Assembly: GCF_044324875.1 (NCBI RefSeq)
Contig: NZ_CP172185.1
Source: Escherichia coli
GTDB lineage: Bacteria; Pseudomonadota; Gammaproteobacteria; Enterobacterales; Enterobacteriaceae
Length of the DNA stretch: 64,000 bases
Strand: one strand, 5' to 3'
Position 1 is the stretch's first letter, and every line of letters begins with the position of its first letter. Below are positions 1,579 to 57,781 of this stretch, one piece after another. A program made the translations under genes and the position numbers. Below the pieces are notes generated by a model. That model made no database searches. It saw only the letters and a list, made by a program, of their open reading frames with translations, and was not told the origin of the DNA.

Positions 1579-1850
<272 letters not shown>

Positions 1851-4148: not shown

Positions 4149-4718
4149 ATGAAACGACTCATTGTAGGCATCAGCGGTGCCAGCGGCGCGATTTATGGCG
4201 TGCGCTTATTACAGGTTCTGCGCGATGTCGCAGATGTTGAAACGCATCTGGTAATGAGCCAGGCCGCGCGCCAGACCTTATCTCTTGAAACGGATTTTTC
4301 CCTGCGCGAAGTGCAGGCGTTAGCTGATGTGACGCACGATGCGCGCGATATTGCTGCCAGCATCTCTTCTGGTTCTTTCCAGACGCTGGGGATGGTGATT
4401 TTACCCTGTTCAATCAAAACCCTGTCCGGCATTGTCCATAGCTATACTGATGGCTTACTGACCCGTGCGGCAGATGTGGTGCTGAAAGAGCGTCGCCCGT
4501 TGGTGCTCTGCGTACGTGAAACACCATTGCACTTAGGCCATCTGCGTTTAATGACTCAGGCAGCAGAAATCGGTGCGGTGATTATGCCTCCCGTTCCGGC
4601 GTTTTATCATCGCCCGCAATCCCTTGATGATGTGATAAATCAGACGGTTAACCGTGTACTCGATCAATTCGCCATAACGCTTCCTGAAGATCTCTTTGCC
4701 CGCTGGCAGGGCGCATAA
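4149..4718 (+). CDS. ubiX: flavin prenyltransferase UbiX
   Basis: 189 aa, N-terminal MKRLIVGISGASGAIYGVRLL flavoprotein fold; position after purF. Confidence 0.93.
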   Translation: MKRLIVGISGASGAIYGVRLLQVLRDVADVETHLVMSQAARQTLSLETDFSLREVQALADVTHDARDIAASISSGSFQTLGMVILPCSIKTLSGIVHSYTDGLLTRAADVVLKERRPLVLCVRETPLHLGHLRLMTQAAEIGAVIMPPVPAFYHRPQSLDDVINQTVNRVLDQFAITLPEDLFARWQGA

Positions 4719-4727
4719 CTCCGCTGT

Positions 4728-4748
4728 TGCCCTGTTTCAGGGCAATTT
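4728..4748 (+). terminator. candidate hairpin terminator after ubiX
   Basis: Inverted repeat ttgccctg-tttc-agggcaa directly after the ubiX stop; weak T-tract. Confidence 0.4.
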
Positions 4749-4899
4749 TGCAACCGCGATCAAATCCTCGACATTTTGTTTCTGCCATTCAATCGAAACG
4801 CTGCGATTCAACCGCTATACCTGCTATCTTCAACTTCAGGACAATAATGCAACGTCTTATTAACATATTTAACGTTGAATGTTACTGTTGTCGTAATGA

Positions 4900-4915
4900 T
4901 GGCATAAGACCTGCA
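4900..4915 (+). promoter_or_regulatory. candidate sigma54 (-24/-12) promoter for argT
   Basis: tGGcataagacctGCa fits the GG-N10-GC spacing of TGGCAC-N5-TTGCA; about 70 bp upstream of the argT ATG. Confidence 0.5.
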
Positions 4916-4983
4916 TGAAAGAGCCTGCAAACACACAACACAATACACAACATAAAAAAGCCATTTTCACTTGAGGGTTATGT

Positions 4984-5766
4984 ATGAAGAAGTCGATTCT
5001 CGCTCTGTCTTTGTTAGTCGGTCTCTCCGCAGCGGCTTCCAGCTATGCGGCGCTACCGGAGACGGTACGTATCGGAACTGATACCACCTATGCGCCGTTC
5101 TCATCGAAAGATGCCAAAGGTGACTTTGTTGGCTTTGATATCGATCTCGGTAACGAGATGTGCAAACGGATGCAGGTGAAATGTACCTGGGTTGCCAGTG
5201 ACTTTGACGCGCTGATCCCCTCACTGAAAGCGAAAAAAATCGACGCCATTATTTCGTCGCTTTCCATTACCGATAAACGTCAGCAGGAGATTGCTTTCTC
5301 CGACAAGTTGTACGCCGCAGATTCTCGTTTGATTGCCGCCAAAGGTTCGCCGATTCAGCCAACGCTGGATTCACTGAAAGGTAAACATGTGGGTGTGCTG
5401 CAGGGATCAACCCAGGAAGCTTACGCTAACGAGACCTGGCGTAGCAAAGGTGTGGATGTGGTGGCCTATGCCAACCAGGATTTGGTCTATTCCGATCTGG
5501 CTGCAGGACGTCTGGATGCCGCACTGCAGGATGAAGTGGCGGCCAGCGAAGGATTCCTCAAGCAACCTGCTGGTAAAGAGTTCGCCTTTGCTGGCTCATC
5601 AGTGAAAGACAAAAAATACTTCGGTGACGGCACCGGTGTAGGGCTACGTAAAGATGATGCGGAACTGACGGCTGCCTTCAATAAGGCGCTTGGCGAGCTG
5701 CGTCAGGACGGCACCTACGACAAGATGGCGAAAAAGTATTTTGACTTTAATGTCTACGGTGACTGA
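4984..5766 (+). CDS. argT: lysine/arginine/ornithine-binding periplasmic protein
   Basis: 260 aa with signal peptide; highly similar to the adjacent HisJ; upstream of hisJQMP. Confidence 0.93.
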
Positions 5767-5824
5767 TACGTCGCAGGGAAGCTGTACCTGATGGAATGAT
5801 CATCATGGTGCACGCCAGGTTTGT

Positions 5825-5841
5825 TGCACTATCGTAGTGCA
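5825..5841 (+). promoter_or_regulatory. candidate NtrC-type binding site upstream of hisJ
   Basis: Perfect palindrome tgcact-atcgt-agtgca in the TGCACY-N5-RGTGCA format, in the argT-hisJ intergenic region. Confidence 0.5.
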
Positions 5842-5986
5842 TTGAAATGCATACTTAAGCATTTTTAATGAAAAATAATACGTCTAACGGGGCGGGATAT
5901 TTTGCCTTGATGGTCAATTTTATGGCACGATAAGTGTAACAAACCTGTAAATATTCCCTATAAAAAGACTGTCAGTTGAGGACATT

Positions 5987-6769
5987 ATGAAAAAACTGGT
6001 GCTATCGCTCTCTCTGGTTCTGGCCTTCTCCAGCGCAACTGTGGCGTTTGCTGCGATTCCGCAAAACATCCGCATCGGTACCGATCCGACCTATGCGCCA
6101 TTTGAATCAAAAAATTCACAAGGTGAACTGGTTGGCTTCGATATCGATCTGGCAAAGGAGTTGTGCAAACGCATCAATACGCAATGTACGTTTGTCGAAA
6201 ACCCACTGGATGCGTTAATCCCGTCCTTAAAAGCGAAGAAGATTGACGCCATCATGTCATCGCTTTCCATTACGGAAAAACGTCAGCAAGAAATAGCCTT
6301 CACCGACAAACTGTACGCAGCCGATTCTCGTCTGGTGGTGGCGAAAAACTCCGACATTCAGCCGACAGTCGAATCGCTGAAAGGCAAGCGGGTAGGCGTA
6401 TTGCAGGGCACCACCCAGGAGACGTTCGGTAACGAACACTGGGCACCAAAAGGCATTGAAATCGTCTCGTATCAGGGGCAGGACAACATTTATTCTGACC
6501 TGACTGCCGGACGTATTGATGCCGCGTTCCAGGATGAGGTCGCAGCCAGCGAAGGTTTCCTCAAACAACCCGTCGGTAAAGATTACAAATTCGGTGGCCC
6601 GTCTGTTAAAGATGAAAAACTGTTTGGCGTAGGGACCGGCATGGGCCTGCGTAAAGAAGATAACGAACTGCGCGAGGCACTGAACAAAGCCTTTGCCGAA
6701 ATGCGCGCTGACGGTACTTACGAGAAATTAGCGAAAAAGTACTTCGATTTTGATGTTTATGGTGGTTAA
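5987..6769 (+). CDS. hisJ: histidine-binding periplasmic protein
   Basis: 260 aa with signal peptide, type-2 periplasmic binding fold; followed by hisQ-hisM-hisP. Confidence 0.95.
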
Positions 6770-32558: not shown

Positions 32559-32610
32559 CCGAATTTCGATTAACGCTCAGTCTCTGACTGAGAAAACTGG
32601 AAGCATGCTA

Positions 32611-51100: not shown

Positions 51101-51855
51101 TCCTGCACGCGCAGGCAAAACACGGCAAACCAGGTTTACCCTGGCTGGTGTTTTTGCACGGTTTTTCCGGCGATTGCCACGAATGGCAAGAAGTGGGCGA
51201 GGCGTTTGCCGACTACTCGCGGTTGTATGTTGATCTCCCAGGTCACGGTGGTTCAGCGACGATCAGCGTCGATGGATTTGATGATGTCACCGACTTACTG
51301 TGTAAAACGCTGGTTAGTTACAACATCCTTAACTTCTGGCTGGTGGGGTACTCGCTTGGCGGACGGGTGGCGATGATGGCGGCTTGCCAGGAGCTGGCGG
51401 GGCTTTGTGGAGTTGTTGTCGAAGGCGGGCATCCTGGGTTGCAAAATGCTGAACAACGCGCGGAACGTCAGCGTTCCGATCGCCAATGGGCGCAGCGTTT
51501 TCGTACAGAACCGTTAACGGCGGTATTTGCCGATTGGTATCAACAGCCTGTTTTTACCTCGCTCAATGACGATCAACGCCGGGAGCTGGTGGCGCTGCGC
51601 AGCAACAATAATGGCACAACCCTTGCCGCCATGCTGGAGGCGACTTCTCTCGCCGTTCAGCCTGATTTACGTGCTAACCTTAGCGCCCGCACATTTGCGT
51701 TTTATTATTTATGTGGTGAACGTGACAGCAAATTCCGCGCCCTGGCGGCGGAACTGGCTGCCGAATGCCATGTCATTCCTCGCGCCGGACATAACGCGCA
51801 TCGGGAAAATCCCGCTGGCGTAATCGCAAGTCTGGCGCAGATCTTGCGTTTCTGA
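51097..51855 (+). CDS. menH: SHCHC synthase (alpha/beta hydrolase)
   Basis: 252 aa alpha/beta hydrolase with nucleophile motif GYSLGG; 4 bp overlap with menD. Confidence 0.85.
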
Positions 51856-56132: not shown

Positions 56133-57781
56133 TTGGGACGATACTGAATCAGCACCAGACGCTCCTGACGATCGATGGCATCTGCGGGCGGAATGGCGAG
56201 ACTGTTGATATCTTCATTGCGGTCAACCGAAAGCACGAGTGTAATAATCCCCTCCTGACGATGTTGATTAAGCCAGTTTGCGAACTCATCACCGCTGACA
56301 AATCTCCCTTTCGCATCCGGATAATTAAGGCCGTATTTCAACTCACCTGTCTGGCGATACATGATGATGTCATCGCGTTGCAGGCTCCATGCCAGACCTG
56401 CGGCAACACCGACGCTATCAGTAAGAATATAGCGGCTTGGCTGAAGTGATTCTTGTGTCATCTCGACAAAAAATTGCGGATGTTTTCCTTCCATGACTCT
56501 GTCAGGAATTGAAAATCCTACCAGCAACGCCAGCCCCAGCGGGCAAAGCGCGGCAAAAGACCAGGTCTTTTCGACGTTTGTTAAGGTGTACCAGCCGAAA
56601 AATGCCCATAGCGAAAAAATCGACCAGGCACAAAAGACTTTATAGCTCTCGAAGGTTTGCCACACTGGCGTGTTCATTGGTCCCCATGGGGAGACCACAA
56701 ATGTGGCAATAATGCCAGTGACACCAAAAGTGATGTTAATCCAGCCATTAATCCGCAGCGCCAGAGGATTATTTTTTGCTGCCAGCAAAGCGTAATGCGC
56801 CATCAGCATTGCCAGAGGTGCAAAGCAGGAAAGAATATAGGTGGGCAATTTGCCTTTGGCGACGGAGAAAAACAGCAGCGGCATTATCGTCCAGCTCAAC
56901 AAATAGACGGTTGCGGAATGCTTGCGGTTTTTCCAGCCTGCGTACAGTGCTCCGGGGAGTAATCCCAGCCACGGCAGGCTACCGGCAATGATGACCGGCA
57001 AGTAGTACCAGAACGGAGCTCTATGCTGAGCATCATCCATTGCAAAGCGTTGAATATGCTCAACCCAGAAAAAATAGTGCCAGAAGTCAGGCTCCCGCTG
57101 CGCTATCGCCAGTCCCCAGGGGAGAACCGTCAGTACGCAACTGATGACCGCCAGCCAGCCGTAAATAAAGAGATCTTTCCAGCGTTTTTGCGTTGCAACC
57201 CATGGAAGCACGCTTAATACCGGCACGGCAAGGGCGAGAAAACCTTTGGTCATCACCCCCATGCCGCAGGTGATTCCCAGCAGTAAAAATCCTGCGCTTT
57301 TGCCTTTCCACGTCTGTGCCTGCATTGCCAGCCAGAAGCTGCACATTCCCGCCACCAGCCAGAAGGCAATAAACGGATCGAGCACGGCATAAGTGCCGAT
57401 GGCATAGACAATAAACAATGAGAGATAAATCACTGCGGCGAGTAATGCCAGACGTTTATCGCGCCATAAGCGCAGAGTAAACCAGGTCACCAGCGCGGCA
57501 GTTAACAGGGTCGCAAAGATAACGCCTGCCCGCACACCAAAGTTATTCGCGCCAAATAGCCATTGCCCAATGCTGTTAATCCAGTATCCGGCAATGGGTT
57601 TTTCGAAATAACGTAGCCCTAACAGATGGGGCACAATCCAGTCGCCGGATGCCAGCATTTCCCGACTGATTTCCGCATAACGCGTTTCATCGGGTTGCCA
57701 GAGCAGACGCGTGCTGATCGGTAACAGGTAATAGCAGGCAATAAACGCGAAGAGGCCGATAAGGTAACGTACCGATTTCAT
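56129..57781 (-). CDS. arnT: undecaprenyl-phosphate-L-Ara4N:lipid A Ara4N transferase
   Basis: 550 aa GT-C/PMT-like polytopic glycosyltransferase. Confidence 0.9.

Follow-up and report, generated by a model that had tools for sequence, protein, structure and literature searches.

The window analysed here is a 64,000-nt stretch of Escherichia coli DNA, in which the argT locus has the E. coli order ubiX-argT-hisJQMP and which is collinear with strain SC418 over the checked genes. A 2-kb query around the site of interest, annotated as ubiX-argT-hisJ, has matches in 5425 of the 5426 complete E. coli genomes. The ubiX-argT spacer contains a terminator hairpin of ubiX (Table 1), which insulates argT from upstream transcription. 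This hairpin is kept across genera, and in Buttiauxella its stems are altered yet still pair; a simple terminator scan narrowly missed it, as it is followed by only 4 T. On the 3' side of the terminator, on the plus strand and in the orientation of argT, lies the -24/-12 element that forms the core of the argT promoter, argTp. A scan against Rfam found no known RNA family at the argT locus.

Table 1. Features of the ubiX-argT-hisJ region, in window coordinates
Feature	Position	Strand	Basis
ubiX terminator hairpin, TTGCCCTG-TTT-CAGGGCAA, then TTTT	4727..4745	+	Fold energy -15.5 kcal/mol, z = -2.9
Sigma-70-type promoter overlapping argTp; candidate -35 TTAACA (4860-4865), candidate extended -10 TGtTACTGT (4880-4888)	4860..4894	+	Start after Schaefer 2015; hexamers assigned here from the sequence
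argTp core, sigma-54 -24/-12 element, 17-mer ATGGCATAAGACCTGCA	4899..4915	+	Sequence, ChIP identity, PWM, conservation
Predicted leader of the sigma-54 transcript, 58 nt	4926..4983	+	Start placed 12 nt past the -12 C and 19 nt past the motif centre
argT CDS, lysine/arginine/ornithine periplasmic binding protein, gene driven by argTp	4984..5766	+	260-codon ORF; annotation in SC418 and K-12
Tandem NtrC-type sites in the argT-hisJ spacer: weak (5796-5812, 9/13) and strong, TGCACTATCGTAGTGCA (5825-5841, 11/13)	5796..5841		Consensus scan
Decayed sigma-54-type element before hisJ, ATGGCACGATAAGTGTA	5922..5938	+	PWM, 11.0-12.7 bits

The sequence-only reading had singled out the 16-mer TGGCATAAGACCTGCA (also given as tggcataagacctgca), which we read at positions 4900-4915, as carrying GG and GC doublets with the exact 10-bp spacing of an RpoN promoter, about 70 bp before the argT ATG. 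This description is borne out by the geometry of the site: GG lies at 4901-4902 and GC at 4913-4914, the spacer between them (4903-4912) is exactly 10 nt long, and the ATG lies 68 nt past the last base of the 16-mer, or 70 nt past the C of the -12 doublet.

The motif alone says little in a sequence of this length. With two mismatches allowed, the consensus TGGCACN5TTGCA is found at 29 sites in the 64-kb window against 28 expected, so that matches of this level occur at chance rate and are uninformative. The stricter pattern TGGCAYN5YTGCW has 4 matches where 0.59 are expected, two of which are known from published sigma-54 ChIP data, OS22 at argT and IS28 at arnT. We also scored the window with a leave-one-out position weight matrix (PWM) made from 133 of the 135 E. 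coli sigma-54 ChIP-seq motifs of Bonocora 2015, the argT motif and the arnT motif that lies within the window being left out. The RpoN PWM scan that had been proposed as a check does find the argT element, with 13.25 bits (31st percentile of the real sites, which range from 6.9 to 20.5) and at rank 7 among ~128,000 positions, but 3.65 +/- 1.9 equally good matches are expected per shuffled window; the motif score by itself is thus not beyond chance in 64 kb and would fail a genome-scale threshold. Only two of the 25 best PWM matches lie between genes and point towards one: the argT element and a weaker match before hisJ. It is through this position, together with the conservation and the published binding and expression data described below, that the argT element is convincing.

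Some intragenic matches in the window score above argTp. The sequence CTGGCATGGAGCCTGCA within arnT (56379-56395, minus strand) is identical to the published intragenic ChIP-seq site IS28, and the arnT site is also included in the list of sigma-54-repressed class III genes. Further matches of 14.5-16.0 bits lie in elaD (45044-45060, plus strand, antisense), menH (51832-51848, plus strand, sense) and elaA (47504-47520, minus strand, antisense), and these three are absent from the published high-stringency sigma-54 ChIP list.

The identification as an RpoN -24/-12 element is supported by published data on the identical sequence. The 17-mer ATGGCATAAGACCTGCA is the same as site OS22 of E. coli K-12, which is bound by sigma-54 upstream of argT in ChIP-seq (fold above threshold, FAT, 12) and whose predicted start lies 58 nt from argT (Bonocora 2015); RNA polymerase beta occupancy covers OS22 in K-12, and the status of the K-12 argT promoter in EcoCyc was "predicted" in 2015. 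K-12 argTp also agrees in its flanking genes and in its distance from argT. An RpoN-holoenzyme gSELEX peak has been reported in the ubiX-argT spacer (Shimada 2021). The suggested comparison with the Salmonella Typhimurium argT promoter (argTr; STM2355) gave an identical 18-mer, TGGCATAAGACCTGCATG, which is the sigma-54 site bound in ChIP-chip (Samuels 2013). In the same study Salmonella argT was 3.5-fold higher in the wild type than in an rpoN deletion when a promiscuous activator was expressed, and argT was counted among four operons whose dependence on sigma-54 was already established, NtrC being named as its activator. In nitrogen-starved E. coli, argT is among the NtrC ChIP-seq targets, albeit with a weak 5.4-fold peak that was added by eye (Brown 2014). 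NtrC-dependent induction of argT under nitrogen limitation is stated in the literature, and expression data have placed argT among the NtrC-activated genes. The nitrogen control of argT that had been proposed from the sequence therefore finds support both in the activator named for Salmonella and in the NtrC ChIP-seq list.

A single DNA-pattern scan built around GTDTTYAPF, a peptide specific to ArgT, gave 46 usable argT loci for comparison. They represent at least 8 genera: Escherichia, Salmonella, Citrobacter, Pseudocitrobacter, Kluyvera, Buttiauxella, Cedecea and a "Klebsiella" isolate. In all 46 the homologous element is the best sigma-54 PWM match within 300 nt upstream of the gene, at a distance of 55-74 nt to the ATG. 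Together the loci contain 12 different 17-mers, in which TGGCA, the A at position 11 and the terminal TGCA are invariant, and only positions 1, 7-10, 12 and 13 vary; the same trend of conservation is seen in table S5 of Bonocora 2015. Invariant -24 and -12 elements with a drifting spacer are the pattern that a sigma-54 core promoter should show across genera, and this excludes a chance match. The idea that the element is a functionless chance hit to a loose consensus, for which the ~3.7 equal scorers per shuffled 64-kb sequence and the chance rate of two-mismatch matches could be cited, is hardly credible and effectively refuted by conservation and ChIP, given the intergenic sense position, the 46 loci in which GG and GC never change and keep a fixed spacing and distance, and the published binding of sigma-54 to the identical sequence in vivo in two species.

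Other blocks upstream of argTp are also conserved in the cross-genus alignment. One of them spans 4858-4866. A dyad, GAAACGCTGCGATTC (4795-4809, centre -124), becomes a perfect palindrome, GAAACGCTGCGTTTC, in Citrobacter werkmanii, and CTGCTATCTT (4821-4830, centre about -100) is nearly invariant in all genera. The blocks at 4795-4809 and 4821-4830 fit neither the NtrC nor the IHF consensus; the dyad was considered as a weak NtrC site and rejected, as it has 7/13 of the consensus and no GCAC core. An inspection of 4719-4899 by eye on both strands for the IHF consensus WATCAANNNNTTR found nothing with fewer than two mismatches.

We therefore conclude, with a probability of roughly 0.93, that the 16-mer is the core of argTp, a sigma-54 (RpoN) promoter of argT that is opened by NtrC under nitrogen limitation. 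This is the already published argT sigma-54 promoter of K-12 and Salmonella, and as a catalogued sigma-54/NtrC promoter the element itself adds nothing new. It is of use as a positive control, being a real sigma-54 promoter that was recognised from raw sequence in spite of a PWM score below a genome-wide threshold. Against the assignment to argTp and NtrC can be set the chance-level PWM score, the lack of an upstream NtrC site of at least 9/13, the weak NtrC ChIP signal, the absence from NtrC gSELEX and the higher argT RNA without rpoN in nitrogen-replete culture. In sequence, position and conservation the element agrees with a sigma-54 promoter throughout, and the one expected feature that we looked for and did not find is a recognisable upstream NtrC site; its absence takes nothing from the identity of the sigma-54 promoter and bears only on the route of activation by NtrC.

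Transcription from argTp would start at about 4926 according to the rule of Bonocora 2015, which reproduces the published 58-nt distance. The predicted leader contains a conserved CA-rich stretch (4929-4952) and a Shine-Dalgarno sequence, GAGGG (4973-4977). In the mechanism that we envisage, the sigma-54 holoenzyme would sit on the GG and GC doublets as a closed complex that does not initiate unaided, and phosphorylated NtrC would open this complex with ATP under nitrogen limitation. The resulting transcript would comprise the 58-nt leader, with the CA-rich stretch as a GcvB target, followed by argT and possibly, by read-through, hisJQMP. With NtrC inactive, the holoenzyme bound to the element instead damps an overlapping sigma-70-type start.

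How NtrC would reach argTp is less apparent. NtrC sites are typically found within 100-250 nt upstream of the promoter that they serve. We scanned for them with the published consensus TGCACC(A/T)4TGGTGCA, and no match reaching 9/13 lies within 350 nt upstream of argTp, either in the window or in any of the Escherichia loci. A useful comparison is glnAp2, which likewise has a -24/-12 core, NtrC as the activator and a paired sigma-70 promoter in the same control region. In glnAp2 the core is closely preceded by tandem strong NtrC sites, at about -108 and -140, whereas Escherichia argTp has none within 350 nt upstream and its nearest consensus sites lie downstream, in the argT-hisJ spacer, with centres at +878 (weak) and +907 (strong) from the predicted start. 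The strong site is the best match to the NtrC consensus in the 64 kb. Brown 2014 reported a 23.7-fold NtrC ChIP-seq peak labelled hisJQMP, the centre of which converts to about 5816 in window coordinates and falls on the tandem sites. Two to three NtrC sites are kept in the argT-hisJ spacer of Escherichia, Salmonella, Citrobacter, Pseudocitrobacter, Kluyvera and Buttiauxella; the sole exception is a Cedecea-like group, which lacks them and has two 10/13 sites upstream instead. An NtrC-only gSELEX lists neither spacer of the argT locus, and we consider this data set uninformative, because the consensus site beneath the strong in vivo peak is missing from it as well.

Outside Escherichia, traces of an upstream site are found. 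An NtrC palindrome of 11-12/13 lies ~283 nt before the argT ATG in Pseudocitrobacter, Buttiauxella and Kluyvera sichuanensis (12/13 in the first two), many Citrobacter have a 9-10/13 half-site at the same position, and Salmonella has a decayed version. The segment that follows the ubiX stop in Pseudocitrobacter is 31 nt long (ACTGCACCAGTGTGGTGCTCATCTGTGCTTT). The hairpin lies 29-32 nt from the ubiX stop in Salmonella, Citrobacter, Pseudocitrobacter and Kluyvera, Salmonella keeping a 32-nt stop-terminator segment in spite of the decay of its palindrome, as opposed to 6-8 nt in all seven Escherichia loci, in which the segment has been lost; the -24 element of Escherichia is correspondingly 23-24 nt closer to the ubiX stop (window region 4719-4726). 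Escherichia thus lacks the upstream NtrC site of other genera because ~23 bp have been deleted.

The spacer sites have a possible partner of their own. The sigma-54-type element before hisJ lies 48 nt before the hisJ ATG and 100-130 nt downstream of the spacer NtrC sites. Its homologue in Citrobacter, Kluyvera and Pseudocitrobacter is near-perfect (ATGGCACGATAACTGCA, ~18 bits), and its -12 region reads ...GCCGCA in Salmonella and ...AGTGTA in Escherichia, where GT replaces GC in every locus. In K-12 this position has no reported sigma-54 ChIP peak, not even in the low-stringency table. The element before hisJ is the ancestral partner of the spacer NtrC sites. A sigma-70 promoter of hisJ, TTGAAA-16-TTTAAT (5842-5869, plus strand), is known from the RpoD gSELEX paper and begins one base past the strong NtrC site; on account of this adjacency, NtrC bound there could also influence sigma-70 transcription of hisJQMP.

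As to the DNA sites from which NtrC would act on argTp, two readings have to be weighed. In the first, argTp is sigma-54-dependent and NtrC acts on it without a dedicated site, either from solution at high levels of phosphorylated NtrC or from very degenerate sites between ubiX and argT, for instance the half-sites TGCAAC at 4749 and 4848; the argT-hisJ sites would be uninvolved. This agrees with the absence of an upstream consensus site and with the weak NtrC ChIP signal centred on argTp itself, and it is general knowledge that NtrC at high concentration is able to activate some promoters from solution. The same reading could draw on the activity of a 197-bp argTp fragment on a plasmid that does not carry the downstream spacer, albeit this result is from a multicopy plasmid and has no rpoN or glnG control. 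The half-sites at 4749 and 4848, on the other hand, match only 5/13 of the consensus, and every examined lineage keeps at least one good NtrC site within ~1 kb of argTp, which argues that tethering matters. On balance we give this reading somewhat less than an even chance.

The second reading starts from what Escherichia has retained: a single good core promoter, argTp, and, 0.9 kb away in front of hisJ, a single good enhancer. NtrC enhancers are able to act at a distance, also from downstream, and our hypothesis is that the spacer sites at 5796-5841 act on argTp. In this scenario of reciprocal decay, argT would have lost its upstream NtrC site and hisJ its -12 element (CTGCA to GTGTA), the surviving enhancer would drive argTp from 0.9 kb downstream, hisJQMP would come under nitrogen control by read-through, and the weak NtrC ChIP signal at argTp would be a cross-link of the loop. 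We regard this scenario as tentative and, taken as a whole, rather unlikely. If true, it would provide a natural bacterial enhancer that works from downstream over nearly 1 kb, and would show a route by which two adjacent sigma-54 units merge into one.

The sigma-54 promoter overlaps a second start. Table S3 of Schaefer 2015 gives an active sigma-70-like start for argT, relative to which the sigma-54 motif spans +6 to +22; this places the sigma-70-type +1 at about 4894. TTAACA and TGtTACTGT, separated by a 17-nt spacer, are the likely -35 and extended -10 of this start; the hexamers were assigned in the present analysis and do not come from that paper. TTAACA is kept across genera and the -10 is not conserved outside Escherichia. 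A simple sigma-70 scan of 4650-6050 found nothing, and it misses the start of Schaefer 2015 because the weak -10 (3/6 plus TG) falls under the threshold. The "repressive" class II sites of Schaefer 2015 (argT, mdfA, topA) include argT itself as a listed member, with no sequence difference: under non-activating, nitrogen-replete conditions argT RNA with rpoN was 23% relative to the vector, and sigma-54 lowered sigma-70 initiation in vitro.

It has to be considered, then, whether the element is mainly a brake, in which a parked sigma-54 holoenzyme blocks the sigma-70-type promoter that supplies most argT RNA and initiation with NtrC is minor. Besides the RNA level, the position of the motif over the sigma-70-like start, the in vitro effect and the conservation of the -35-like TTAACA, the cloned fragment mentioned above may be cited. 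In Ma 2020, argTp served as an expression part for engineering, and its 197-bp fragment was the strongest of 12 in yeast-extract medium, with activity rising in stationary phase; from the primers it corresponds to window positions 4729-4925 and ends at -1 of the sigma-54 start. The activity was seen on a multicopy plasmid in experiments that lacked rpoN or glnG controls, and the sigma-70-type start within the fragment could account for it; for these reasons we rejected the argTp-gfp fusion as proof against the need for a downstream enhancer. The element can nevertheless fire, as a DNA-binding-independent activator raises Salmonella argT 3.5-fold in an rpoN-dependent manner; argT also belongs to the expression-based list of NtrC-activated genes, and the sigma-54 element is kept everywhere, whereas the sigma-70-type -10 is not kept outside Escherichia. 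We therefore consider a role mainly as a brake to be improbable, although the roles of brake and promoter are not mutually exclusive. The loss of argT expression in an rpoN mutant that the sigma-54 promoter predicts would be expected only in nitrogen-limited medium, and the change should have the opposite sign in rich medium, since sigma-54 is repressive when unactivated.

The argT region of the window also shows some strain variation. At 99% identity or more over the argT region, the only relative among the 5426 complete E. coli genomes is SC418 (sediment, USA), the others having 90-99%; the window thus belongs to an E. coli lineage that is uncommon. Over the 301 bp from 4700 to 5000 the window differs from K-12 at two bases only, 4895 (C to A) and 4897 (A to T), which correspond to -31 and -29 of argTp and to +2 and +4 of the sigma-70-type start; this two-base allele is common to 4 of the 5075 matching genomes. 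A further difference lies in the strong NtrC site, where a G-to-A change at 5836 turns TGGTGCA into TAGTGCA. The A is found in neither K-12 nor SC418, nor in any of the 5419 matching complete E. coli genomes. Either it is a mutation private to this strain, in a half-site of a conserved enhancer, or it stems from a sequencing error. If the spacer enhancer does serve argTp, this change would slightly weaken the nitrogen induction of argT.

Elsewhere in the window, two Rfam families were detected above their gathering scores: naRNA4 (REP-derived), as two tandem elements between dedD and cvpA (1634-1795, plus strand), and the nuoG RNA element between nuoF and nuoG (32561-32603, plus strand).
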